This document shows, piece by piece, positions 10,595 to 24,777 of a stretch of DNA of 64,000 nt. This DNA is from an uncultured Acidimicrobiia bacterium (GTDB lineage: Bacteria > Actinomycetota > Acidimicrobiia > IMCC26256 > PALSA-555): contig CAVRGH010000003.1 of the NCBI GenBank assembly GCA_963720675.1, forward strand, positions 72,087 through 136,086, in the 5' to 3' direction. Every line of letters starts with the position of its first letter. The first letter of the stretch is position 1. Position numbers and translations under genes: made by a program. A model generated the notes under the pieces. That model was not told the origin of the DNA. It did no database searches and saw nothing but the letters and a program-made list of their open reading frames with translations.

Positions 10595-13484
10595 ATGGTC
10601 GAGCGGATTGCGGTCGCCTTCCTGGCCGCGGCAGTGCTCACGCTGGGCGCGGGTGCCTGGCTGCGGGCCCAGTCGCGGCGCCGGGGCTGGCTGCGGCAGG
10701 CGGGTGGCGTCTGCCTCGTCATCGCGGCGCCGGTCGGCATCGTGCGTCGCCCCGACCCTCACCACGCGCTCCGCCGTCCTCGGGTTGGTCGCGATCGGCC
10801 TCGCGGTCGTCGGGGTCGTGCAGACCCAGCACGTGCTCCCGCGATGGGTGGTACCGGCCGCGATCATCGCCGCGTCGGTCGCGGGCACCGCGACGGGGCT
10901 GCGGTTCCACCTCATCGGCGTCCCGGCCGTCGACGCGGCCTGGACGGTCGCGTGGCTCGCCGGGGTGACGCTCGCGGTCGCCGGGTTGGGCAACGCCGAC
11001 GGCCTCACCGCGGGGGTCGTGAGCGCTGCCGGCGTCGGGGTCATGGCCCTGGCCGGCTTCGCGGACCAGGGTGGCGCCGCGACCGCGGCCGCGGCGCTGG
11101 TCGGTGCCGCGCTCGCGTTCCTCGCCTACAACCTGCGGCCGGCGTCGCTCTACATCGGTCGTGCCGGCGGGCTCTTCGCAGGGTTCTCGCTGGCCGCCGG
11201 CGCGCTCTGGTTGGAGCCCGCGATCGCGCAACCCGACGCGCTCGTCGTCCCCCTCTTCATCGTCGGTGTCGCGCTGCTCGACGGCATGGTCGTGGTCGCG
11301 AGTCGCCTCCGGCACCGGCGAAGCCTCGCGACCCGCTACCGCGACCACCTCGCGCATCGGCTCGTCGCCGTCGGGCTCCGCCCGTCCCAGGCGATCTCGG
11401 TGCTGATCGCGATCCAGGTGGTCATGACGGCGCTCGCCGTGTTCGTCGGCCGCGGTGTGCTCTCGCTCCCGATCGGCGCAGGAGCGGGCGTCGTGGTGCT
11501 CGGTGTGCTCTGGATCATCTCGATGCGGGCGACGGTCTCGTCGGAGGACGCGCCGGGCTTCAGCGCCAAGGTCTGGCTCACGGCGTTCGCCGTCCTCCTG
11601 CTGCTCGGGGCCGCGAGTGCCGGCGCCGGGTACCTCGCCTACCAGTCGCGCGACGACGTCACCGCCGGACGCGACTTCGCCCGCTCGGCGTTGCGCGCGG
11701 CCCGCAAGGGTGAGCCGAAGCGGGCGGCCGCGCTCTTCGCGAAGGCCGAGGACGCGTTCCGGAGCGCGCAGGACAAGGTCGACAGCCCGCTCGCGACGCC
11801 GGGCCTCCTCGTCCCGGTGGTCGGGGCGAACCTCAACGCGGCGCGGGAGCTCTCCGACATCGGGGCCGAGCTCGCCCGCGCCGGCCAGGCGCTGACCGCG
11901 TCGGTCGACCCGGACTCGCTCCGGATCGTCGACGGGCGCGTGCCGCTCGAGGCGGTCGCGGCCGTCGAGCCCAAGCTCACGGAGGCGGCGGACCTCCTCG
12001 TGGACAGCAAGGCCCGCCTGGACGAGCTGAACCGGACCTTCCTGGTCGACCAGATCGACGAGGCGATCGGGAAGCTCGAGCCCGAGCTCGCCAAGACCAC
12101 CGAGGACGCGGTGCACGGTGCGGCCGCGGCGCGCCTCGCGCCGAAGATCCTGGGCGGCGACGGCCCGCGGCACTACTTCCTCGCCGTGCAGAACCCGGCC
12201 GAGCTCCGGGGCACCGGTGGCCTGATCGGGAACTGGGCGATCCTCACCGCGGAGAACGGCAAGGTCACCGTCGGGGACGTCACGAAGCTGGGTGCCCTCA
12301 ACTACAAGGAGGGCGATCCCGACGCGGGTCCTGCACGCACCCGCCGACTACAAGCGGCGCTACGCGCGCTACCACCCCGAGACCGAGTGGCACACGGTGA
12401 ACATCTCGCCCGACTTCCCCACGGTCGGCAAGGTGGTCGGCGACCTCTTCCCGCAATCCGGCGGCATGCCGGTCGACGGGGTCATCGCGGTCGACCCGGT
12501 CGGGCTCTCGGCCCTGCTGGACCTCACCGGACCCGATCGAGCTCGCGTCGTGGCCCGACAAGATCACGTCGAAGAACGTCGTCGACGTCACCCTGCGCGA
12601 CGCGTACACCGTGTTCCAGGAGGACAGCCGCGAGCGCAAGGACTTCCTCGGGGATGTCGCGCACGCCGTCGTCGACAAGGCGACGTCGGGCGACCTCGGC
12701 CGTCCCGCGACGGTCGGGAAGGTGCTCGGCCAGGCTGCGCACGAAGGCCACTTCTCGCTGTTCTTCGCGCGACCCGGCGAAGAAGGCGTGGTGCGGGAGC
12801 TCAACGTGTCGGGCGGCGTGCCCCCGGCCGCCCACGACTCGCTCCTCGCCCTCGAGGTGAACGGCGCGGGGAACAAGCTCGACTACTACCTCGACCGCAG
12901 CATCGACTACTCCGTCGAGGTCGCGCCCGACGCGGACCTCCAGGCCGCCACGGTGAAGGGCACCGTGCAGGTGAACCTCACCAACACCGCGCCGCCGAGC
13001 GGCTTGCCGAACACCGTCGGTGGTCCGGCCGAGGGCACCGGCGACCGGTTCGTCGCCGGTCAGAACCGAGCGCTCGTCTCGGTGTACACGCCGCTCGAGG
13101 GGAGCACGGCGCAGGTCGACGGGCAGCCGGTCGGCGTGGAGCGCGACGTCGAGCTCGGTCGCCGGGTGTACTCGGCTGCGGTCGACGTGTTCGCCCAGCA
13201 GGCGCGCGTCGTTCAGCGTCGACGTCGCCGGTCGCGTCTCGCTCGTGCCCGACGGTTGGTACGAGCTCGAGCTGGTGAAGCAGCCGACGCTCGAGTCCGA
13301 GCCCGTGCACGTGAAGGTCTCGGTACCCGAGGGCTTCGAGGCCGTGGCGGCGACAGGGGGCCTCAAGCTGGTCGACGGAGGCGCCGAGGGCACGGTCACC
13401 CTGGACCGCACCCGCACCGTCCGGGTGCAGCTGGCCCGCACGGGGAGCCGGAGCCTCTGGGACCGGCTCGTCGACGGGCCCTGA
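10595..13484 (+). pseudogene. WecA/MraY-like polytopic membrane domain fused to DUF4012, at least four frame breaks
   Basis: N-terminus MVERIAVAFLAAAVLTLGAGAWL is in frame 2. The membrane domain is in frame 0 (shift ~10745), with GLGNADGLTAG and FLAYNLRPASLYIGRAGGLFAGF. DUF4012 motifs follow: LLVPVVGANL...GPRHYFLAVQNPAELRGTGGLIGNW. Further shifts occur near 12320, 12535 and 13205. The gene ends LVDGP, with TGA at 13482-13484. Confidence 0.65.
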
Positions 13485-13674
13485 GGCTCCAGAACTCCCG
13501 GATTCGTGCCGATATCGGGTGGGCCTGAAGGCCCGGGGACCGTGCTGGACGGGTCTGTTGCCGATGTGTGAATATGCGTCCCCGGAAGGCAAGAAAACAT
13601 GGGCTTCGGACCGCCTTCCGATTACAGTCTCCTGAAGAGCATTTCCTGCACCACCAGACGCTGAGGGGTATCCA

Positions 13675-14184
13675 GTGCGCAAGCTGACGACCACGGTCCT
13701 GTTCGCTCTCATCCTTGGGACCTGCGCCGCGGTGTTCGCGGCTCCTGCCGGTGCGCAGGAGGGTGGCCCCGGCCCGGGGAGTGTCATCTCCGGTTGCGCC
13801 ATCACGGTGAATCCCTCGCCGCTGCCCGGCATCACCGTGACGGTGGACGGCACCGGCTTCGACCTCACCGAGGTGCTGCCGATCGCCGTGAACGGCACGG
13901 TCGTGCAGGAAGTCACGACCGACGCCGCCGGCACGTTCACCGCCCAGGTCGACATCCCCGCTGACGCGTCGAAGCCCGTCACCATCACGGTGCCCTGCAG
14001 CCCCGGTTCGACCGAGGTCGCGAGTGCGACCGGTGCCGCCGACCCTGCTGCTGCGCTGGCGTTCACGGGTTCCGACACCTCGCCGATGGTCATCGGTGCG
14101 CTCTTCGCCATCGGTGTCGGTGCGATCCTCGTCGTCGGTGCTCGTCGTCGGAGCAGCGCCCAGGCGCACCGCAGCAACGCGTAG
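13675..14184 (+). CDS. Secreted cell-wall-anchored protein with LAFTG sorting signal (sortase-E type LAxTG)
   Basis: GTG 13675 sits 6 nt after GAGGGG. The signal peptide is MRKLTTTVLFALILGTCAAVFAAPAGA. The C-terminus carries LAFTG, a hydrophobic span and an RRRS tail. Confidence 0.75.
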   Translation: MRKLTTTVLFALILGTCAAVFAAPAGAQEGGPGPGSVISGCAITVNPSPLPGITVTVDGTGFDLTEVLPIAVNGTVVQEVTTDAAGTFTAQVDIPADASKPVTITVPCSPGSTEVASATGAADPAAALAFTGSDTSPMVIGALFAIGVGAILVVGARRRSSAQAHRSNA

Positions 14185-14228
14185 CACCACTGAAGTTCCG
14201 AGCTTGACCGCTTCGCGGTCGCGCCGCA

Positions 14229-14772
14229 GTGGCTGACGTCCTCGTCGTCTGCCACGCGAACCAGTGCCGCTCGCCCCTGGGTGAAGCACTGCTTCGGGCG
14301 CACCTCGAGCGCTCAGGCGTGCATGCCATCGTGTCGTCGGCCGGCTTCCTCGAAGGGGGCCGGCCGGCTGCGTCCGGCTCCGTGCCGCGCCGCGAAGCGA
14401 CGCGGCCTCGACCTCCGCGACCACCGGAGCCGCCAGGTCACGCCCGATCTCGTCCTCGAGGCCGGCCTCGTCCTCGTGATGGAGACGCGTCAGGTGCGCG
14501 AGATCGCGGTGCTCGCACCCGGGGCACTCGAGCGGACCTTCACGGTCAAGGACGTCGTGGCACGTGGGACGCGGCTCGGGCGCCGCCGTCCCGACGAGTC
14601 GGTCGAGGAGTGGATCGCCCGACTCCACGCCGACCGGCAGCACGCCGACCTCCTGCGCGACGACCCGGCCGACGACGTTGCGGACCCCATGGGCGGCACC
14701 GCGGCCGACTACGAGCGCACGGCCGACGAGCTCGACGTCCTGCTCGGCCGTCTGGTGGGCCTCGTCGACTGA
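14229..14772 (+). pseudogene. Low-molecular-weight protein-tyrosine phosphatase, one frame break
   Basis: VADVLVVCHANQCRSPLGEALL carries the CX5R(S) P-loop in frame 0. It continues as AAKRRGLDLRDHRSRQVTPDLVLEAGLVLVME...DVADPMGG in frame 1 (shift ~14380). Confidence 0.7.
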
Positions 14773-14789
14773 CGCGTCGCCACGCGTGG

Positions 14790-15634
14790 TCAGTCCTGCG
14801 ACGCCCTTGAAGCGTCGACGCCGTTCGAGACGGTCGGCCGCGAGGGTCGGTGGCGGTCCGTGCAGCAGCAGGTGGACCCGGCGCTTCAGGCGGATGAGGG
14901 CGGTGGACCGCGGGATCGGACCGGCGCAGGCCAGCAGCGCGGCCTCCGGGTCGGGGGAGGCGCGGATCTGCCCGAGCCACGCCTCCTGCTCGTGATGGGG
15001 CCGGGTCCGGTAGACGCCCTCCCGCGAGGCGCTCGGGATCTTGACGCTCGTGAGGTGGTGCACCCACGCCGGAGGGCCCGTGCGGTCGTGGATCGCGGCC
15101 CAGAGCGCGGTGTCGGGCATCACCTCTCCCGTCGCTTCCGGCCGGCGCCACCCACCCGCGGCCAGGGCGACGTCGCGTCGATGGGCCAGCGACGTCGGCG
15201 GGATCCCCAGGCCCGGCTCGTACTGCCAGGTCGGGCCGGGGATCACGTAGGGCTCGCCACCCGGCGGCACGAAGAGCACGTCGCCGTGGGCCCACGCTGC
15301 GCCCGCGTCGACGGCACCGGCGACGAGCTCGAGGTGTTGCGGCAGCCACAGGTCGTCGTGGCCGAGGTAGGCGACGACCTCGCCGCGCGCCGACCTCGAG
15401 CGCGGCCTGGTTCGGCCCGGACTGGTGGCGGGCGCGCTCGGGCAGGTTGATCCAACGCACTCGCGGGTCGGGGACGGCGCCGACGACTGCCTCGGACTCG
15501 TCGGTGCAGGCGTCACCGACGACGAGGAGCTCGAAGTCCTCGCGGGTCTGGTCGAGCACGCTGCCGATGGCGTGGGGGAGGACCGGCGCCCAGTTGTAGG
15601 TCGCGAGCACGACGGTGACGCCGGGAGCGCTCAC
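14790..15634 (-). pseudogene. Glycosyltransferase family 2, at least one frame break; 3' end uncertain
   Basis: GTG 15634. MSAPGVTVVLATYNWAPVLPHAIGSVLDQTREDFELLVVGDACTDES...GPNQAALEVGA continues as GEVVAYLGHDDLWLPQHLE in another frame (shift ~15390). The in-frame reading never reaches a stop before running antisense into the PTP gene. A TGA at 14790-14792 in the third frame is the likely true end. Confidence 0.6.
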
Positions 15635-16140
15635 CAGCGGAACGGCACGATCTCCTCAGCACGGGGTGAGTCGTAGGGGAGGTCGAGCGCATCGGGCTGC
15701 TCATGGCGGTACTCGTTCGACGGCATGTTGATGATGAACGCCTCGTCGACCCCGATGTTCTTCCACCCGTGGTACAGGTTCGGCGGGATCACCAGCAGCC
15801 CCGGGTTCCGCTCGCTCACCCGGAACTCGTTCAGGGCGCCGGCGGTCGGGGAGTCGATCCGGCCGTCGAAGACGACGATCGACACGAGACCGCTGACGAC
15901 GAAGAGCCGGTCGGTCGACGCCTGGTGCAGCCCCCAGGCGCGCACCCGGCCCGGGTATGTCGTCGTGAGGTGGACCTGGACGACCTCGGTCTCGATCTCG
16001 GGCCAGCTGGCGCGGGCGATCTCGGCGAGGGTGCCGTCCTCGTGGGGGACGGGTCGATTCGGGCGGAAGCGCACGCCGTCGATCGGCAGGTGGCGGAGTG
16101 CACCGCTCGCGTCGACCGCCGAGTGCTTGGGCGCGAGCAC
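15631..16140 (-). CDS. dTDP-4-dehydrorhamnose 3,5-epimerase-like cupin (RmlC family)
   Basis: The ORF is intact at 169 aa. It reads ...GTLAEIARAS...VQVHLTTTYPGRVRAWGLHQASTDRLFVVSG...LVIPPNLYHGWKNIG. The stop overlaps the GT2 start. Confidence 0.7.
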   Translation of the reverse strand: MLAPKHSAVDASGALRHLPIDGVRFRPNRPVPHEDGTLAEIARASWPEIETEVVQVHLTTTYPGRVRAWGLHQASTDRLFVVSGLVSIVVFDGRIDSPTAGALNEFRVSERNPGLLVIPPNLYHGWKNIGVDEAFIINMPSNEYRHEQPDALDLPYDSPRAEEIVPFRW

Positions 16141-16169
16141 CTCACGCCCGACGATGCGCGGCTCGTCGG

Positions 16170-16955
16170 TCAGCCGTCGGCCTTTGCTTCCTTGGCTTCA
16201 CCCTCGTCGGCCGGCTTCTCGCTCGGCGGTGGCGTGGAGAGGCCGAGCTCGCTGCGGAGCTCGCTGAGCCGGGCTTGGGCCTCGGCGCTGGCCTGGGCCT
16301 GCTCGACCTCGAGCATCTTGGTGTCGACCGTCGCGCCGGTGAGGTCGCTCGTGGCCTGCGCCTTGGAGAGGCGCTTCTCGATCTTGTCGCGCACCTGCTC
16401 GAAGGTGGGGATGTCGTCGCCGACCGTCTCGCTGAGCTGGGTCATCGCCTTGCTCATCTGCTCCTGCATCTTCGCCTGATCGAGCTGGCTCAGGAGCTTC
16501 TCGCGCTCGGCGAGCTTCTTCTGCAGGGCCGAGGAGTTCTGGGCGACCATCTGCTTCGCCTTCTCGGACTGCTGCGTCGCGTCGAGCAGGGTCTTCTTCA
16601 GGTCGTCGATCTGCTTCTCGAGGTTGATCAGCTTGTTCGCGAAGGCCTCCGCCGCGGAGCTGAACGACGCGGCCTTGTCGGCGTTGCCGGCGCGGGTCTC
16701 CTGGTCGGTGAGCAGGAGGGCCTGACGGGCCGAGGCGTTCGCCTTCTCGTACTCGTCCATGGCCCGGTCGAGCTTGAGCTGGGTCTGCTTCTGGTTGGCG
16801 ATGACGTTCGCGGCCTGCTCGGTGAGCTTGCGGTGCTGCTCCCGGGCCTCGGTGATCGCCTGCTCCAGCTGGACCTTCGGGTCGGCCGACTCCTCGAGCT
16901 TCAGCCCGAGCTTCGCCCCGAGGTACTTCCACCAACGCTTGATCGCTTTCCACAT
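16170..16955 (-). CDS. pspA: PspA/IM30 family membrane-stress protein
   Basis: The ORF is intact at 261 aa and coiled-coil throughout: MWKAIKRWWKYLGAKLGLKLEESADPKVQLEQAITEAREQHRKLTEQAANVIANQK... Confidence 0.9.
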   Translation of the reverse strand: MWKAIKRWWKYLGAKLGLKLEESADPKVQLEQAITEAREQHRKLTEQAANVIANQKQTQLKLDRAMDEYEKANASARQALLLTDQETRAGNADKAASFSSAAEAFANKLINLEKQIDDLKKTLLDATQQSEKAKQMVAQNSSALQKKLAEREKLLSQLDQAKMQEQMSKAMTQLSETVGDDIPTFEQVRDKIEKRLSKAQATSDLTGATVDTKMLEVEQAQASAEAQARLSELRSELGLSTPPPSEKPADEGEAKEAKADG

Positions 16956-17068
16956 GGGCGAGAGCCTACGCCAGCGCCCATCGGGTCTCGCCTCAGGGGG
17001 CGAGCGGTGATATTCGGCAGCAGCGAAGAGGTAGTGGCCCTGGGAGCAGACGGTCGCCGCGCCCGAGG

Positions 17069-17581
17069 CTAGCCGCCCGCGGTAGCTGTCGATGGTGGCG
17101 TGGTGGGGCGGGCTGTTCGAGCCAGGCGTTCAAGGCCTTGACCGCCCCGAACCCGTCGGAGGCGCAGTTCGTGGCTCCGGGGAAGTCCTGGCAGAACAGG
17201 TTCTCGGACCATCCGGCCGGAGGCGTGATGTGGGTGAGCGGCGTCGCGGCAGGTCGCGTTCGCGAAGCGGTCGACCGAGCTCTGCGCGAGCGAGGTCGCC
17301 GCGTCGATCGTGTATGGGTTGTACGGGTGGATCTTCGTGTGGCACTGGGCAAGCGTGTCGCCACCGCTGCCGACGTCGCTGCAGCTCTGCACCTGCGGCG
17401 CGGGCGGAGGCGGCGGCGGCGGCGGGGCACACGCCGCGGCGAACACCGCGCCGACCACGGTCACGCTCCCGAGGAGCACGCCCAGTCGAAGAAGCGTTCG
17501 TGCGCCTCTGGGTCTTCTGCATCGCTGTGGTACCTCTGCTGCTCGTCGGGGTCGAGCGTGGGACGAACTCACCGTACCCAC
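17069..17581 (-). pseudogene. Cys-rich lipoprotein, function unknown, one or more frame breaks
   Basis: The signal peptide plus lipobox is LLGSVTVVGAVFAAAC, followed by PPPPPPPP. ...SSVDRFANATC then continues in another frame as THITPPAGWSENLFCQDFPGATNCASDGFGAVKALNAWLEQ (shift ~17260). The C-terminal end is ambiguous. Confidence 0.45.
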
Positions 17582-17701
17582 GGCTCTTGTGAATCACTGG
17601 AATCATCGGCAGATCCCGGTGTCGTCTTGAGAACCGACGGGGCCCAGGGCCGATTTCAGGACTTTGGTCCCGCTTGGGGAAACGCTGGGGTCCTGTTTGC
17701 C

Positions 17702-18512
17702 TCAGCCGGCAGCGCCGGCGGCCGAGGCCGTGCCCTCGACGCCGGGCCCGGTCGCCCCGGCCGCGTCCGTCGTCTTCCCGGCTTCGTCGAGGGAGACCCG
17801 GAGGGTCTCGAGGTCGCTCACGAGGGACTCGATGTCCCCGCCGAGCCCGCCCAGCTCCCCGACGTCCTCGGCCCGGATGGAGAGCTCGACGGCCCGGGCC
17901 ACCGCCTCGTCGAGGCGGGCGTCGAGCAGGCGCAGCTTGTCCTGAGCCTCCGACGCGACGTTGATGAGCCGGTCGGCCGAGTCGGCCTGCGACTGGAGGG
18001 CCGCGACGGTGGCCTTGGCGTTTTCGCTGGGGTTGAGCTTCGCCGCCTGCTTCGCCGCGTCGAGCTCGCGCCGTCGCGCCGGCCGGGTCGAGGTTGCCGA
18101 TCGCGTCGACGAGCGCGTCACCTCGGCGGGCGACGCGCCAGCACTCCTGCACGCCTTCGTCGATGCGGTCGCCGATCTCGACGAGCCGGTCCTGGAGCGG
18201 TCCCGGGTTCGCGGTGCTCACCGCCTTGCGGTACCGCCGCTGCGCGTCGAGCGCCTCCCGCACGAACCTGCGCCACGGGTCGCCGATGCTCATCGGGTCG
18301 ACGCCGCCCTCGCGCTTCCGGCGTGGCATCAGCGTCGCCACCCGGGCGAGCCAGGCGAGCGACCCGACACCGATCACCGCGAGGGCGGGGAGCCCGAGGA
18401 CGACCGCGGCCGCTGCGCCGACGCCGCAGAGCACGATCGCCGACGGCGCCATGAGGGCGTCGGCGGTCTTCTGGGTCTTCCACTGCTCGGGGAGCTTGTC
18501 GACGACACCCAT
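17702..18512 (-). pseudogene. Membrane-anchored coiled-coil protein (PspA neighbour; TelA-like by eye), one frame break
   Basis: MGVVDKLPEQWKTQKTADALMAPSAIVLCGVGAAAAVVLGLPALAVIGVGSLAWL (two TM spans) ...DALVDAIGNLDP is followed, in another frame, by RRELDAAKQAAKLNPSENAKATVAALQSQADSADRLI... (shift ~18085). Confidence 0.6.
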
Positions 18513-18605
18513 GATCAGGACATCCTGCCCGATCTCGGGCTGCTCGGTCAGGCCGCAACTCCGGGCGCCCGTTCGGGGCGCCGTTCGGCGCTCGGTCTCG
18601 CCTGC

Positions 18606-20430
18606 TCAGAAGTTGCTGATCACGGCGTTGAAGACGTTGACGATCGTGGACGGATCGACCGCGCTGTACGCGGCGCCGTTGGTGGCCTCGGCGATGCGCT
18701 TGAGGGTCGCCTGATCGGCGTCGTTGCCGTACGCGATCGTGAAGATGCGCACCGCCGTGGTGGACTCCCCTTCGTTCTGGCCGCGGAGGAAGTCGAGCAG
18801 GTCCGCGAGGCTCTCGTTGCGGGGGTCCTCGTTGCGGCCGTCGGTGAGGAGCACGACGGCATTGATGCGCGTCGGGTCGTACTCGTCGACGAGCTTCGTG
18901 TACGAGTCCTCCGCGGCCGTGTAGAGCGGGGTGCCCTGGGTCGGCACCAGCCGCTCGATCTGGCTCTCGAGGTCCGCCCGGTTCGCCGACATCGGGCCGA
19001 CCGGCACGACGTCGCGGTAGTCGGTCGGCTCGGACTTGCTGATGTCGGTCGAGAAGATCCGCAGCCCGACTTCGTCCTCGGGCTGGAACTGCCCGAGCGC
19101 AGCGATCGCCGCCTTCTTCGCCAGGTCGAGCTTGGTCGCTCCCGACCCGGAGTCGGCCTCGTCGCCCATGGAGCCCGAGACGTCGATGACGAGCAGGGCC
19201 CTGGCCTTCTTGCGGACCTGGTTCCACTCGTCGATCACGCCGGCGAGCACCGGCGGCTTCGGCACCTCGAGCGTCGTCTGCGGCTCGTTCGGGTCGACGC
19301 CGTTCGCGGCGACGATCGGCTTGCCGATGGCGACCGCGGCGTTGCCGGGGCGGAACCCGTACTCGAGGACCTGCCGTTGCGCCTTGGGCTCGGTGACGAA
19401 CTTGGTGAACTTGCGGGCCGCCGCGGCTTCGTCCTTCGACACCCAGGGTGCGTCGAGCGTGATCAGCGGGTTGTCGGAGAAGAGCGTGCCCTCCTTCGGG
19501 TAGATCGCCACGAGGGGGACGCGCGGCTTGCGGGGCTGCTCACCCGGGTCGAGGATCCCGTCGGGGTTCCCCCGGTTGTAGTCGAGCAACGACTTCTCCT
19601 CGACGGCCACTGCCGAGGCGTAGCCGTAGGGGTTGCCACGCCGGTCGGCCCGGTAGAGGTTGTTCAGGAACGTGAGCGTGGTGTCGCCGTAGTGCACGAC
19701 CGCGGACTCGACCCCGCGGGCGAAGGCCTCGACCTCGGGCCGCGCGAGATCCTCGAGCGTGAGGTCGCTGGTCTTGCCCGTCGCCGCGTAGTACTGCGCG
19801 ACGGTCTGGGCGAGACCGCTCGTGGAGAAGTTGGGGTTGGTCTTGCCGAGGAGGAACGGGCCCCACTCGGGGTGTCCCTTGCCGGCCCAGCCCGACGGGT
19901 CCTGGGCGAGCGCCAGGATGTCGGAGAACCCGATCGGGGTCGCGGGGTAGCCGAGGGCGTCGGCCATGGGCTTCGGCATCGCGATCACGAGCGGTGTGAG
20001 CATGAACGACGTGCCGGGGGTCGTGACGTACGGCGTCTTGCCGGCGTCGGCGCGGCGCTGGTCGAGCACCGCGCCCCACGTGCTCGCCGACGGCGACCAG
20101 ATCACCGGTCGCACGCCGTTCTTCGCGGGCTTCGGCCAGTTGGCCGCGAGCAGGGTGGCCGCCGCACCCGACGACTGCTTCTGGATGTCGACGTTGATGC
20201 ACCTGCCGTTGACCGTCGCCTCGTCGGAGCGCTCGAAGCGCTTGGCGAGGCGCGGTGAGCAGCTCGAGCTTCTCGGGGGACGACGCGACGTTCACGGTCA
20301 CGCAACCGCCCGCCGCACCCGCCGGGCCGGAGCCCGCGGTCACGAACGCGCCCGCGAGCAGGCTCACCGCCAGCATCGTCGTGATCGTCCTGGCGAACCT
20401 GCTGCCCCGACTCATTCCGTCCCGCCTCAT
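18606..20430 (-). pseudogene. Secreted solute-binding-like domain fused to a von Willebrand factor A (vWA) domain, one frame break
   Basis: The signal peptide MRRDGMSRGSRFARTITTMLAVSLLAGA...CVTVNVASSPEKLELLT continues in another frame as ALAKRFERSDEATVNGRCINVDIQ... (extra C near 20258). The vWA MIDAS motif is LLVIDVSGSMGD, followed by TPLYTAA and VVLLTDGRNED. Confidence 0.75.
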
Positions 20431-20486
20431 TCCATCATTCCCGCTCTCGGCGCCGACGGCGCCGGGCCGCTCGGGCCACGCCTCGG

Positions 20487-20509
20487 GCGCCGCACGATAC
20501 GTGCGGCGC
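20487..20509 (-). terminator. 10-bp GC hairpin between two cistrons of the PspA-linked cluster
   Basis: The hairpin is GCGCCGCACG-ATA-CGTGCGGCGC. It lies 19 nt downstream of the stop at 20528 and 57 nt upstream of the next start at 20430. There is no U-tract. Confidence 0.35.
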
Positions 20510-20527
20510 TGCTCCTCGGCTCAGGCC

Positions 20528-21598
20528 TCATCCAGTGACCTCTCTCCAGGTCTCGAGCAGCGCCTCGAGCGAGCCGGCCGTCGGGAGGTTCGGGCGGGCC
20601 GGCAGGACCGGGGTGCTGCGCACACCCTTGGCCCGGGGCTCGCCGTCGACCCGCCATCCGGCTCGGGCGAGGGCTGCCCGTCCATCATCGCCGGTGAGGA
20701 GGTCGCGCAGGTCGTCACCCCCTGACCCGCCGGTGATCGGGGCGTACACGACATCCGCACTGGCCACCGGCGCCGGGTAGAGCAGCCGCAGCTGGGCCCG
20801 ACGGTCGGCCGACGCCGCCGCGAGCAGCGGGCCCGCCTCGGCCTCGGTGGTGCCCACCACGTCGTAGATCGCGGGTCCGCCGACGAGCATCCGCTCGAAC
20901 GCCGAGCCGGGGTCGAAGCGGATCGAGCGCTCGAGGCGGCCGAACCAGTCGAGGAACCCGTCGTCGGCGTAGTCGTCTCGGGAGAGGTCGGTGCGGCCGA
21001 AGTACTGCGTGGCCGCCTGGCCGATCACGAGGAGCCCGATCCCGTCGGTCGCCGGGTCGGCGTGACCCGGCTTCACCGTGCCCCACGCGGCCGAGCCGCC
21101 GATCGACGACCACGGTGCCCCCGCCACGTCACCGATGCACTTCCAGTCCAGCTGCTTGCCCCCGCACCGGGCCGCGAGGACATCCGCGCGGTCCTTCCAG
21201 ATCGCGAGCACGAGGGGCGACCGCCCGATCGGCGGAGACGGCGAGCCGACGATGCGGGGCAGGCCCGTGCGCTCCCGAGCGTCGCGCACGATCTCGGCCT
21301 CGCGGCCGAGGGTGAGCCAGCCGTCGTACGGGAGATCGCCGGGGTTGGAGCGGCTCAGCTCGTCGGCGCTGACCCCGGCCGGGGCGATCGTCACGTCGAT
21401 GCCGAGGTCCGAGCTCGCAAGCGTGTCGCACGCACCGAGCTCACTCGCGCACAGGAGACGCAGCGCGCGGTCCGGAGGACCGTCGCTGCCGCCACCCCCG
21501 CCGCCGTTGCCGTCGAGGAGCGCACGGATCCCGAACGCGCCGCCGATGAGCGCGAGCGCCACGACGACGGCGAGCACGCGCTTCGCAGCGATCGACAT
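20528..21598 (-). CDS. Membrane-anchored secreted protein, solute-binding-protein-like
   Basis: The ORF is intact at 356 aa. It has an N-terminal TM span (MSIAAKRVLAVVVALALIGGAFGI), a Gly-rich linker and a domain with the same architecture as the N-terminal half of the 18606-20430 protein. Confidence 0.65.
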   Translation of the reverse strand: MSIAAKRVLAVVVALALIGGAFGIRALLDGNGGGGGGSDGPPDRALRLLCASELGACDTLASSDLGIDVTIAPAGVSADELSRSNPGDLPYDGWLTLGREAEIVRDARERTGLPRIVGSPSPPIGRSPLVLAIWKDRADVLAARCGGKQLDWKCIGDVAGAPWSSIGGSAAWGTVKPGHADPATDGIGLLVIGQAATQYFGRTDLSRDDYADDGFLDWFGRLERSIRFDPGSAFERMLVGGPAIYDVVGTTEAEAGPLLAAASADRRAQLRLLYPAPVASADVVYAPITGGSGGDDLRDLLTGDDGRAALARAGWRVDGEPRAKGVRSTPVLPARPNLPTAGSLEALLETWREVTG

Positions 21599-21602
21599 CC
21601 GG

Positions 21603-23000
21603 TCAGACCTTCACGGGCGGCACGTCGGCGGCGACGAGTGTGACGAGCTGCTCGTTCGTCGGGTTGGCGTCGTCGACGATCCGCGAGGCCTGCCGCGTGA
21701 CGCACTCCTCGAACAGGTTGCGGGCGAGCCGACCGTTGCCGAACGTCTCGCCCCGCGGCTGCGCCGCGAGGTATGCCTTGACCGCGGCGCGCCCGGACTC
21801 GTCGAGCTGGTAGTGGTGCTCCTTGCCGATCCCCTCGAAGATCGCGACGAGCTCGTCGTCGCTGTAGTCGGGGAACTCGATGGTCTTCGGGAACCGCGAG
21901 CGCAGCCCGGGGTTCGACTCGAGGAACTTGTTCATCGGCGTGGGGTACCCGGCCACGATCACGATCAGGTCGTCGCGGTCGTCCTCCATGCGCTTCAGGA
22001 GCGTCGCGACGGCTTCCGCGCCGAAGTCCTGCTCGCTGTCCGTCGTGAGCGCGTACGCCTCGTCGATGAAGAGGATGCCGCCCTTGGCCTCGTCGCAGAC
22101 CTTGTTGACCTTGGTCGCGGTCTGGCCGACGTACCCGGCGACCAGCCCCGAGCGATCGGTCTCGACGAGATGACCCTTCGAGACCACCTTCAGCACCTTG
22201 TAGAAGCGAGCGAGCAGTCGCGCCACGGTCGTCTTGCCGGTGCCCGGGTTGCCGACGAACACGAGGTGCAGGCTTCGGTCGACGACCGGCAGCAATCGCT
22301 CGCGACGCAGGTTCTCGACGCGCACGAGGTTGGTGAGCAGGCGGACCTCGGTCTTCACCGCCTCGAGACCGATGAGGCCGTCGAGCTCCGCGAGGAGGGA
22401 CTCGACCGTGTCCGCAGGCTTCTCGGGGGCACCGGGCTCGCCCGGCGGACGGGGACCGGAGTCGGCCGGCCGCTCGATCGCCGCTGCGGTGATCCGGCGC
22501 AGCATCATCGCCCGGAGCGTGTCGACCGCGAGCAGCTCCTCGCGGGTGGGGGTCGGGTCGATCGCGCACGACGCGTGGGCGACCCGCAGCGCGGCGTCGT
22601 AGTAGCGCCACGAGTGCGCCGTGTGCTCGCGCTCGTCGGTGGCGACGATGGTCTCGAACAGCGGCGACGGTGTGACCGTGAAGCCCCGGTGCTGACCGAT
22701 CGCCGCGCTGTCGCGGAGTGAGGCGGGGGTGGCACCGCGTAGCGACTCGAACCAGGGCGCGAGCGCCTCCGCGAACGCGGCGAGCTCGGCGTCGCTGGGG
22801 TGGCCGTCGGCCGAGATCACGCTCGCGGCGACTGCCTGGGCTTCGAGCGCCGCGTCGCGCTCGATCGCGGCCGGGTCGGGAGGCGTGGCCGCGTGCTGCT
22901 GGAGCTCGCCGAGGACCTGGGTCAGCTCGGTGACGAAGGCGCGGACGGGCTCGCCGAGGAGGCCTCCGCCGGACCCCGCCCCACTGTCCGTGTCGGCCAT
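21603..23000 (-). CDS. CbxX/SpoVK-type AAA+ ATPase with a helical N-terminal (TerB-like?) domain
   Basis: ATG 23000 (MADTDSGAGSGGG). The AAA core reads LIGLEAVKTEVRLLTNLVRVENLRRERLL...HLVFVGNPGTGKTTVARLLARFY (Walker A), GGILFIDEAYAL (Walker B) and NPGLRSRFPKTIEFPDY. The N-terminus carries SADGHPSDAELAAFAEAL. Confidence 0.85.
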   Translation of the reverse strand: MADTDSGAGSGGGLLGEPVRAFVTELTQVLGELQQHAATPPDPAAIERDAALEAQAVAASVISADGHPSDAELAAFAEALAPWFESLRGATPASLRDSAAIGQHRGFTVTPSPLFETIVATDEREHTAHSWRYYDAALRVAHASCAIDPTPTREELLAVDTLRAMMLRRITAAAIERPADSGPRPPGEPGAPEKPADTVESLLAELDGLIGLEAVKTEVRLLTNLVRVENLRRERLLPVVDRSLHLVFVGNPGTGKTTVARLLARFYKVLKVVSKGHLVETDRSGLVAGYVGQTATKVNKVCDEAKGGILFIDEAYALTTDSEQDFGAEAVATLLKRMEDDRDDLIVIVAGYPTPMNKFLESNPGLRSRFPKTIEFPDYSDDELVAIFEGIGKEHHYQLDESGRAAVKAYLAAQPRGETFGNGRLARNLFEECVTRQASRIVDDANPTNEQLVTLVAADVPPVKV

Positions 23001-24014
23001 GCTTCCCTCGAGTCCGATCCGTCGCGAGGCCCCATCCTTCCATTCGCGGGGCGCTCGCCCGAGGGCGTGGCGTCGCCGGCGCCCCGGTCGGGAGCGCCGT
23101 CGTGGGTGCCGTCGAGGAACGCCGCCACCGTGTCGACGAACCACTCGGGCTCCTCGAGCTGGGGTGCGTGGCCGACGCCCTTCGAGCACGCAGAGGTCGA
23201 GCGTGGCGTGGCGCGCCGCGGCAGCGTGGGCGAAGCCGACGCTGACGAGCTGGTCCTCGGCGCCGTGCAGCAGGAGGGTGGGCCGGGCGGACGCAGCGAG
23301 CGCGAGGTCGGCGTCGAAGTCGCCGGCGACCTCCTGGAGGAGCGTCCGCGCCGCGTCGGCGTAGGCGGCCGCGGCCTCCGGGTAGGCATAGCGCTCGGCG
23401 GCGAGGAGGACGATGCGTCGGCGCAGGTCGGGGTCGAGGCGCTCCGGGTCGTGAAGGGTCATGCCGAGGCTCAGGTCCACGAGCCGCTCCGGGCCGAGCA
23501 TGCGCGCCCGCGCCGACACCGTGCGACGCCCGAGCGACGGCATCATCACCGGCATGTAGCGCGCGGCCCGCAACCACGATGACGGGGGGATCCGGCCCCA
23601 GGGCAGTGCGGGGTTCACGAGGACGAGCGCCTCGACGAGGTCGGGCCGTCGGGCGGTGACACCGGTCGCGATCACGCCGCCCATCGAGTTGCCGAGCACC
23701 GTGGCCGGCCCGGTCTGCTCGAGCAGCGTGAGGACGAGGTCCCGGTTCGACTGCACGGTCGCGGCGCGCTCGGGTGCGCGTGTGCGACCGAACCCGATCA
23801 GGTCGATGGCGGTCACCGTGGCGTCGAAGCGGTCGGCGAGGAGCTGTCCGACGGGTTGCCACGAGAGCGTGTTCGCGCCGAGGCCGTGGACGAGGAGCAT
23901 GCGGCGCTCGGGCCGGTCGGAGCGACGCGGGGACGTCCGAGCTCCAGGGACCCACGCCATGCTGTGCACGCGCACGCCATCGACGTCGAGGTACTGCACG
24001 GTTCCGGGGGCCAC
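22922..24014 (-). pseudogene. Alpha/beta hydrolase fold protein, one frame break near the C-terminus
   Basis: It reads MLLVHGLGANTLSW...VLGNSMGGVIA (GxSxG)...LLLHGAEDQLV...LDLCVLEG, then continues as VGHAPQLEEPEWFVDTVAAFL in another frame (GGG/CCC run at 23178-23180). In the ORF track it is artificially fused to the AAA+ ORF. Confidence 0.7.
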
Positions 24015-24093
24015 GGCACCAGGCTACGTGGTGGCGCGCGAGGCTGACGCCGTGCCGAAGCCCAGCCGCGCGTGGTCACTCGAGTTCGCGCAG

Positions 24094-24777
24094 ATGGATG
24101 CCGGACCCTGGGTCGCGGGCTTCGTGCGACTCGAGCTCCGACCGGATGACGGTGTCGCGTGGTACTGGGCCTACGTCCTCGGCGGCGACGTCGGACTGGT
24201 CGTCGTGCGTGACCACGAGGTGCCGCTCCCGCGAGGCGACCAGCTCGTCGTGCGGGCCGAAGGACTCTGGGCGGAGCTCGTCTGCGAGACACCCGCCGAG
24301 CACTGGAGCATCGGGCTGGAAGCGTTCGGGGTGCGGCTCGACGATCCCGCGGACGGCCTTCGCGGTGAGATCGGGGAGCGACTCGCGGTTGGGCTCGACC
24401 TGGAGTGGGAGGTGGCACCGGACGCCGCGCCGCGAGGAGGGCCGGTCGATGGAACGGTCTTCGGCGAGGTGCTCGTCGGCCGGGACCGGATCGCAATCGA
24501 CGCCCCGGGCACGTTCCGCGAGGAGGACGGCCCGTCCGACTGGGTCACGACGGCCGGCTTCGCAGCCGAACGGGATGCGGATGGTCTGCCGCGGTCGGTG
24601 ACCCGGGTGGGCGGGGACCAGCCGATGCCGGTCGAGGTCCTCGGGCTGGCGGTCCTGCCGCTCACCGGGCCCGGAACGGAGGCGCCCGCAGCCTTGGTCC
24701 GCGTCCTGGGTCGGTGGACGGACGACGATGGGGCGACCAAGGTGGGCTGGGTCGACCTGGTGGAGCAGCGATCATGA
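24094..24777 (+). CDS. Hypothetical protein
   Basis: The start is ATG 24094 (alternative GTG 24028). Codons are GC3-rich and the translation is non-repetitive (WYWAYVLGGDVGLVVVRDHEVPLPRGD...). The stop overlaps the next ATG (ATGA). Confidence 0.55.
   Translation: MDAGPWVAGFVRLELRPDDGVAWYWAYVLGGDVGLVVVRDHEVPLPRGDQLVVRAEGLWAELVCETPAEHWSIGLEAFGVRLDDPADGLRGEIGERLAVGLDLEWEVAPDAAPRGGPVDGTVFGEVLVGRDRIAIDAPGTFREEDGPSDWVTTAGFAAERDADGLPRSVTRVGGDQPMPVEVLGLAVLPLTGPGTEAPAALVRVLGRWTDDDGATKVGWVDLVEQRS

Follow-up and report, generated by a model that had tools for sequence, protein, structure and literature searches.

The window analyzed here is a 64,000-nt stretch of contig CAVRGH010000003.1 from an uncultured Acidimicrobiia bacterium. 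It has a G+C content of about 72% and contains, at positions 16170-24014 of the minus strand, a gene cluster that ends with a gene for phage shock protein A (pspA). Upstream of pspA, in the order of transcription, are genes predicted to encode an alpha/beta hydrolase, an AAA+ ATPase, a membrane-anchored protein resembling solute-binding proteins (SBP1), a second SBP-like domain fused to a von Willebrand factor A domain (SBP-vWA), a protein with two transmembrane (TM) helices and a helical bundle that we call TMCC, and a lipoprotein-like protein. The original prediction had described these as seven head-to-tail genes, and profile searches of the open reading frames (ORFs) of the window with Pfam, supplemented by NCBIfam profiles for the class of the AAA+ protein, confirmed the genes and their domain content. 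Judged from its gene order, the cluster looks like a previously undescribed envelope-stress module. We read it as a PspA module that is associated with the envelope and found across the lineage of Acidimicrobiia and Nitriliruptoria, a reading that we believe and doubt in about equal measure.

The evidence that carries this reading is the conservation of the gene order. Relatives of SBP-vWA number in the thousands, are about 596 aa long when intact, and are mostly labelled Acidimicrobiia. A look-up of the SBP-vWA product of the window itself found no record. A scan with one genome per species returned about 590 matching stretches, and our gene-order counts cover the best 80 of these, with 59-100% identity, all from species-representative genomes. 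These 80 loci (numbered with the prefix L) come mainly from Acidimicrobiia and also include Nitriliruptorales (L058) and Egibacteraceae (L072). The counts are raw, ignore kinship between genomes, and have denominators that vary by gene. SBP1 lies directly upstream of SBP-vWA in 66 of 70 loci and TMCC directly downstream in 63 of 69, with TMCC farther away in 5 more. The gene for the AAA+ protein lies upstream of the SBP1/SBP-vWA pair in 41 of 63 loci, and in 40 of these the product has an extra N-terminal domain. Downstream and on the same strand, pspA is found within 2 kb in 26 of 43 loci and at 2-10 kb in 12 of 43 (38/43 within 10 kb). The conserved core is therefore SBP1, SBP-vWA and TMCC. 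The outer flanks of the cluster vary between clades, and a gene order that recurs over 59-100% identity with differing flanks is far beyond chance. The cluster is thus kept together well beyond close relatives, and the absence of synteny that had been named beforehand as grounds for abandoning the idea was not found. Two of the loci (L005 and L007) have record titles that read "uncultured Bifidobacteriaceae bacterium", and their SBP-vWA sequences are 84-100% identical to that of L001 (P0010). These public entries seem to carry the wrong taxonomic label.

The pspA gene (16170-16955) is intact and encodes a protein of 261 aa that belongs to the PspA/IM30 family. Its match to PF04012 (4.6e-28) reaches 98.8 bits against a cut-off of 33.9 and spans profile positions 4-218 of 220. 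The N-terminus, MWKAIKRWWKYLGAKL, is conserved in the orthologues and has the amphipathic, basic and aromatic character expected of the first PspA helix. Public records call these orthologues "phage shock protein A".

A hexamer of the form TANNNT is found at -15 to -12 from the pspA ATG in 48 of 55 distinct upstream regions, compared with 2 of 23 TMCC starts and none of the other genes at the same distance, and the bases around the box are not conserved. At this spacing from a start codon, TANNNT is the signature of leaderless mRNA in actinobacteria. Seven pspA genes lack the box, and six of these have a ribosome-binding site of the GGAG/AAGG type instead. In the window the hexamer is TAGGCT (16963-16968, at -13 from the ATG), and there is no Shine-Dalgarno sequence before pspA. 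Thus, pspA probably has its own leaderless promoter. In several loci (L015, L016, L020, L026, L029, L057, L060, L061, L064, L068, L073 and L074) TMCC terminates at a TAG located 10-13 nt ahead of the pspA ATG. This stop codon supplies the first three bases of the TANNNT box, so that a single TAG both closes TMCC and opens the putative -10 element of pspA. At the other end of the cluster, the hexamer TAGCCT (24021-24026, minus strand), read directly from the sequence, lies 6 nt upstream of the hydrolase GTG. An in-frame TANNNT followed by 6-7 nt and a start codon is also found at the upstream unit in L003, L010, L011, L012 and L035, and L005-L009 have TACACT, 10 nt and ATG. We predict that the window hexamer is a leaderless promoter of the upstream unit. 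The likely layout is a unit formed by the hydrolase, AAA+, SBP1, SBP-vWA and TMCC genes and a separate leaderless pspA. Separate transcripts had been named as evidence against a shared module; the apparent promoter of pspA does weaken the claim of a single operon, while the conserved neighborhood stands. A scan of 15500-24600 for sigma-70 promoters and terminators gave nothing beyond shuffled expectation, although such a scan is ill-suited to this GC content. No tRNA or Rfam family was found in the window.

SBP1 (20528-21598) has an N-terminal TM anchor, which a Gly-rich linker connects to an SBP-like domain containing conserved Cys pairs. Its match to SBP_bac_11 is weak (1e-3). SBP-vWA (18606-20430) combines SBP_bac_11 and VWA domains, both found in the ORF at 18606-20114, with its signal peptide in the frame starting at 20430. 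The vWA domain (18630-19193; PF00092, 1.1e-11) contains a complete metal ion-dependent adhesion site (MIDAS) of the form DxSxS...T...D, with DVSGS at 19164-19184, the T (GT) at 18921-18944 and the D (TDG) at 18825-18851. The corresponding residues (D405, S407, S409, T489 and D519) are invariant in 25 SBP-vWA sequences. The closest solved vWA sequences are of the BatA/BatB type, and profile searches with the SBP half found no solved SBP relative. Comparison of SBP1 with the SBP half of SBP-vWA by hhalign (97%, E 8e-11, 278 columns) agrees with the original prediction that the two SBP-like modules are paralogous. Conserved cysteine pairs and a hydrophobic N-terminal sequence for export or anchoring are found in both proteins. 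We therefore place them outside the cytoplasm, and SBP1 is accordingly predicted to be extracytoplasmic. The SBP pair can exist without cytoplasmic partners, as seen in one metagenome-assembled genome (MFD01916.bin.2.63) that has two SBP1-SBPvWA pairs: the pair at L036 has neither TMCC nor pspA within 10 kb, and at L040 an ABC-2 exporter is inserted ahead of TMCC.

TMCC (17702-18512) was traced by tblastn in two frames. It is composed of a two-TM hairpin, a basic PRRKR stretch and a helical bundle of about 170 aa, an arrangement conserved in an alignment of 33 homologues. The family contains 1007 clusters at 50% identity (E<=1e-3). By the positive-inside rule, the bundle is predicted to be cytoplasmic, and AlphaFold2 models it with a pLDDT of about 90. 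The original prediction had suggested a check against TelA and PspM. Neither TelA (PF05816) nor XpaC was matched by the 33 members at E<=10 or by the L001 orthologue, and these sequences could be assigned to no Pfam family. Foldseek against the PDB gave no match at E<1e-3, with all top 50 at E>8e-3. We also considered whether TMCC is itself a PspA or Snf7 (ESCRT-III) protein and rejected this, with an hhalign probability of 2.9% against PspA and no ESCRT-III, Vipp1 or PspA structure in the top 50 Foldseek matches.

Some TMCC homologues are fusions with the module at the C-terminus. The partners are TerD (P0322 and P0325, in L086, L087 and L090), a Ser/Thr kinase (P0335, L088 3006-4511) and SARP regulators with Trans_reg_C and BTAD domains (P0357 and P0374, the latter at L089 5861-7420). 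In L086 the gene directly ahead of the TerD-TMCC fusion encodes another TerD. Since its partners are a kinase, transcriptional regulators and TerD, this suggests that TMCC has a membrane signaling role. The locus L088 has no stand-alone TMCC; here SBP1, SBP-vWA and PspA genes are contiguous, and at a distance of 1.4 kb are an FHA gene and, after it, the kinase-TMCC fusion, next to a Band_7 gene. Because the fused module takes the place of the free one near the same partners, this swap is good contextual evidence that TMCC works with the SBP-vWA/PspA set and would signal across or at the membrane. A further apparent fusion, P0379 (604 aa), was discarded as a frameshift-merged chimera of vWA, TMCC and MurJ joined through out-of-frame stretches. 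The artefact does independently show the gene order vWA-TMCC-MurJ.

Across L003-L084, the last conserved helix of TMCC (...ESLRxALEE) is followed by a C-terminal tail of low complexity that is rich in Gly, Ala and Thr, such as GTAQAAGAGG. The tail is longer where the AAA+ gene is present (median 12 versus 6 aa; Mann-Whitney p=0.002, kinship ignored), which is a lead on the tail as a handle for the AAA+ protein, although it may simply mirror clade structure. Likewise, pspA directly follows TMCC in 24 of 32 loci with the AAA+ gene and in 1 of 17 without it (Fisher p=3e-6, kinship ignored), an association that may also do no more than reflect the clades. Both observations fit a link between the AAA+ protein and the TMCC-PspA end of the cluster.

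The AAA+ ATPase (21603-23000, within an ORF at 21603-24014) matches AAA (PF00004, 4e-20) and AAA_lid_6 (PF17866, 5e-17). Its Walker A (GNPGTGKT, 22230-22253), Walker B (ILFIDEAY, 22053-22076) and YVG pore loop (AGYVGQT, 22119-22139) are intact, as in the CbbX/SpoVK/EccA clade. The original assignment to the CbxX type rather than the MoxR type is borne out by NCBIfam profiles (TIGR02881, 5.8e-84; TIGR02880, 7.5e-71; TIGR03922, 1e-70) and by the closest solved relatives, which are CbbX (3ZUH/3SYL, 4e-58) and EccA1 (9e-48). The match to AAA_5 is only 5e-4 and under its cut-off. The protein also scores below all three equivalog cut-offs (238.7 versus 459.25 for TIGR02880, 281.2 versus 422.95 for TIGR02881 and 238.9 versus 466.65 for TIGR03922). 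A PADLOC search for defense systems gave generic AAA+ similarity only (IetA, 2e-9; TRIP13) and nothing for the other four proteins, and a role as a defense system was rejected.

The N-terminal domain of this protein (22485-22967) is all-helical, with eight helices in about 160 aa in the AlphaFold2 model (pLDDT 88, pTM 0.84), and is conserved in about 40 species. The orthologues were taken from the cluster loci, since a word-indexed search with the domain alone gave 18 fragmentary proteins, and the model was built on a shallower alignment than the locus-derived one. The domain had been thought reminiscent of TerB. We found no match to PF05099 for the window sequence or 29 orthologues and no TerB in the top 50 Foldseek matches of the confident model, and the "ADGxxxDxEL" resemblance appears to be similarity at the level of a motif. 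The same sequences matched no Pfam family at E<=10, including the TPR families. In the PDB, a sequence-profile search gave nothing under E 0.1, and Foldseek found nothing better than myoglobins at E 0.34. Upstream of the AAA+ starts in the public annotations of L001 and L003 is a conserved first helix of the domain (GLLGEPVRAFV...; window 23000-22922). For this reason these annotations are truncated at the N-terminus, and the true start falls inside the 3' end of the hydrolase gene, in a different frame.

Two members of the original set of seven do not belong to the conserved cluster. The hydrolase (22922-24014; Abhydrolase_1, 5e-20), with a GNSMGG nucleophile elbow and a C-terminal GHAPQLE, is confined to the closest clade and lies upstream in 18 of 58 loci. 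The lipoprotein-like ORF (16993-17581, from stitched frames) has a signal peptide, an AAAC lipobox, a Pro-rich linker and a Cys-rich region, and searches of Pfam and NCBIfam placed it in no family. L085 and L003 lack it, and elsewhere other genes take its place; in L085 the whole segment corresponding to 16978-17701 is missing. It is thus a lineage-specific insert, and its position between TMCC and pspA is a variable slot. This slot is filled in other genomes by a CMAS-type methyltransferase (L001 and L005-L007), MurJ (L032, L033 and L069), a GH3 glycosidase with a YkuD L,D-transpeptidase (L024 and L030) or YkuD (L040). Because these inserts are genes of envelope biogenesis, they strengthen the envelope theme of the original prediction. 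On the far side of pspA, synteny with L085 stops exactly past the pspA stop codon (window 15631-16166 versus L085 11488 onward). Here the window contains a dTDP-sugar-epimerase-like cupin and a GT2 glycosyltransferase, and L085, L001 and L003 contain MGMT and a malate/lactate dehydrogenase, which points to an insertion or rearrangement of polysaccharide genes beside pspA in the window.

The layout of the cluster was as predicted in several respects. The first two genes, hydrolase and AAA+, overlap by 79 nt, and the later gaps of 4, 97, 93, 120 and 113 nt were reproduced from the gene boundaries that had been given. However, at least four of the genes are not uninterrupted frames in this sequence, and two of the spans are not multiples of three (1825 nt for 18606-20430 and 811 nt for 17702-18512). 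By following GC3 phase switches and tblastn alignments with intact orthologues, we placed single-base frameshifts at about 23177 in the hydrolase gene (alignments of the L001/L003 orthologues end at 23178), at 20250-20253 in SBP-vWA and at 18074-18077 in TMCC. The lipoprotein-like ORF has one or two breaks, at 17245-17248 and about 17493. This gives five frame breaks in about 6.3 kb. GC3 remains at 0.9-1.0 on both flanks of every break, and the L001/L003 orthologues are unbroken (327/314, 596/595 and 252/253 aa). Outside the cluster, the GT2 gene at 14546-15634 (also 13396-15516) stays in frame for only about 80 aa. Split genes abound in L085, the closest relative found, and include housekeeping genes (for example Ldh, Iso_dh and AICARFT). 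Because the orthologues are intact, L085 is itself shredded, genes outside the cluster are broken and the coding signal continues on both sides, the breaks most likely reflect errors in a noisy assembly of long reads rather than pseudogenes. The long-read assembly behind the window seems prone to indels, and any reading of it based on ORFs needs frame correction.

As the original prediction had stated, the cluster is unlike the described Psp regulons. No PspF, PspB, PspC, ClgR, DUF3046 or LiaI was found among the cluster products or in flanks of about 10 kb, and TMCC has no detectable homology to TelA, Snf7 or PspA. The available text of the two large comparative-genomics surveys of Psp has no mention of vWA, CbbX, SpoVK, TelA or this arrangement. 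The nearest described theme is found in Table S3 of Ravi et al. 2024 (PMC11237479), which lists PspA neighborhoods that also encode secreted PBPb (+OmpA), TM-anchored Snf7 and a tandem classical AAA+ protein, for example in Candidatus Handelsmanbacteria (OGG56892.1) and Archangium (AKJ06548.1). These have in common with our cluster that PspA, an extracytoplasmic binding-fold protein, a membrane-anchored helical protein and an AAA+ protein are encoded in one neighborhood. By contrast, the SBP here is of the SBP_bac_11 type, present twice, once with a vWA/MIDAS fusion, the membrane protein shows no detectable relation to Snf7 or PspA, and the AAA+ protein is a single-domain member of the CbbX/SpoVK/EccA class with a novel N-terminal domain. 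Our cluster also has no ABC transporter genes, comes from another phylum and is built of non-homologous parts. The clgR-pspA-pspM-pspN genes of M. tuberculosis also encode an actinobacterial PspA with a two-TM partner beside it, but the ClgR-like and DUF3046 genes are missing here. The cluster also differs in that TMCC is encoded ahead of pspA and has a helical bundle of 170 aa, and PspM is reported to be restricted to mycobacteria and corynebacteria (PMC11237479). The pspF-pspABCDE genes of E. coli and the liaIH and pspA-ydjGHI genes of B. subtilis resemble the proposed module in pairing a PspA-family effector with small membrane proteins by which stress is sensed and the effector recruited. 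The window cluster differs in having no PspB, PspC, PspF, LiaI or SPFH protein, with Band_7 found only near the L088 variant, and its SBP-vWA pair and CbbX-type AAA+ protein have no counterpart in those systems.

PspA and Vipp1 are bacterial members of the ESCRT-III superfamily. The ESCRT-III/Vps4 system of archaea and eukaryotes offers another comparison, since in the cluster an ESCRT-III-superfamily polymer (PspA) is encoded near an AAA+ protein with an N-terminal helical adaptor domain and an aromatic pore loop. The AAA+ protein here is instead CbbX-like, the MIT domains of LIP5 and spastin match its N-terminal domain only at E>1, and its gene is separated from pspA by three genes. CbbX (the red-type Rubisco activase), EccA (type VII secretion) and SpoVK share the AAA+ module, AAA_lid_6 and the YVG pore loop. 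Unlike them, the window protein scores under the equivalog cut-offs, has no Rubisco, ESX or sporulation genes nearby, and has an N-terminal domain unrelated to the TPR domain of EccA. An AAA+ protein and a vWA/MIDAS protein in one cluster also recall the MoxR-vWA/Bat (aerotolerance) systems, as does the BatA/BatB type of the closest solved vWA. We rejected a MoxR-vWA pair because the AAA+ protein is CbbX-type and the vWA protein has an N-terminal signal sequence and so occupies another compartment; exported with its SBP domain, the vWA could not meet the AAA+ protein. Ter systems (TerD, TerB, TelA and TerY-vWA) resemble the cluster as membrane-associated stress systems with vWA and helical membrane-proximal proteins, and some TMCC homologues are fused to TerD. 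However, TerB, TelA, TerC and TerD domains were undetected in the window cluster products.

Several observations weigh against a single PspA module. The function of the cluster and the functional links between its products are drawn from gene context. The counts of conserved gene order ignore phylogeny, and most of the genomes belong to one class. The AAA+ gene is absent from a third of the loci, and the TM region of TMCC is poorly modelled (pLDDT about 40-55). Others would be explained by two unrelated neighbors, namely an SBP-vWA-TMCC system (with or without the AAA+ protein) and a solitary pspA that are adjacent through slow genome rearrangement. This would account for the conserved -10 box of pspA and its want of a ribosome-binding site, for the variable genes, some on the opposite strand (GCS2), that part TMCC from pspA in several genomes, for the absence of pspA within 10 kb in 5 of 43 loci, and for the second SBP1-SBPvWA copy (L036) that has neither TMCC nor pspA. 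It also agrees with Popp et al., who found that pspA usually occurs without its classical partners (PMC9239133). Nevertheless, 38 of 43 loci keep pspA downstream and on the same strand, although these loci span two classes and 59-100% identity and have differing outer flanks. TMCC ends within 10-13 nt of the pspA ATG in at least 10 loci, and in L088 pspA abuts SBP-vWA and the moved kinase-TMCC fusion stays within 1.4 kb. With these points set against it, we consider the proposal of two unrelated neighbors unlikely, if well worth weighing.

Sensing or homeostasis of a divalent cation (Ca2+/Mg2+) or an anion by a Ter-like logic is, in our judgement, quite improbable. According to this proposal, the MIDAS/vWA and SBP domains would bind the ion outside the cell, TMCC would signal inside it, and PspA would be an incidental downstream effector. 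TerD is a Ca2+-binding Ter component, and the TerD-TMCC fusions with the second TerD gene in L086 are consistent with the idea, as are the invariant MIDAS, an MgtE gene adjoining SBP1 in L088 and the membership of SBP_bac_11 among molybdate/sulfate-type SBP families. However, none of the TerB, TerC, TelA and TerD genes is in the window cluster, the TerD fusions are a small minority of the 1007 TMCC clusters, and no transporter is consistently linked. Very improbable, too, is a role of the SBP-like proteins in solute uptake with a permease and ATPase encoded elsewhere and with the AAA+ protein and hydrolase as unrelated housekeeping enzymes. The SBP_bac_11 and SBP_bac_8 matches in Pfam and the public annotation "extracellular solute-binding protein" favor it, but neither 16170-24014 nor the neighborhoods of L001 and L003 contain a permease or ABC ATPase gene, a vWA/MIDAS fusion and a TM-anchored paralogue are atypical of uptake SBPs, no solved SBP relative was found by profile, and the fixed partner is a two-TM helical protein rather than a permease. 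Because transporter genes are not linked to them, the SBP pair would be binders or sensors rather than uptake proteins. Finally, the density of frame breaks could mean that the cluster is decaying into pseudogenes in this genome. We find this scarcely credible given the coding signal around each break, the broken genes elsewhere in the window, the split housekeeping genes of L085, which is the same kind of assembly, and orthologues that are unbroken in short-read assemblies.

Returning to the PspA module, we propose that the exported SBP1 and SBP-vWA would bind or sense an envelope component or a divalent cation. Their state could be passed across the membrane through the TM helix of SBP1 and the TMCC hairpin, and the TMCC bundle may then recruit or regulate PspA at the membrane, as PspB/C, LiaI, YdjI and PspM do elsewhere. 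The AAA+ protein, through its pore loop, might remodel or recycle assemblies of TMCC, PspA or both. Transcription of pspA from its own putative leaderless promoter would allow the level of the effector to be set independently of the sensor genes. A stronger form of this proposal, which we regard as improbable, is that the AAA+ protein is a functional counterpart of Vps4 that, driven by ATP and acting through TMCC or directly, would disassemble or recycle PspA polymers whose assembly would be triggered by SBP-vWA and SBP1. According to a 2025 review (PMC7619361), an ATPase resembling Vps4 "appears absent in bacteria".

How PspA/Vipp1 polymers are targeted to damaged membranes and disassembled is little known outside a few model organisms. 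The cluster provides candidate PspA partners for a large, mostly uncultured actinobacterial lineage, namely TMCC, the exported SBP-vWA pair and an AAA+ protein with a new adaptor domain, and two of its domains, TMCC and the N-terminal domain of the AAA+ protein, have no relative in Pfam or the PDB. It also adds a clear case of a conserved predicted leaderless promoter of pspA. We infer that the cluster is a variant of the PspA-centered envelope-stress systems, widespread in Acidimicrobiia, that would work by the mechanism outlined above. If its AAA+ protein does act like Vps4, it would supply the nucleotide-driven step that current reviews call missing for bacterial PspA.

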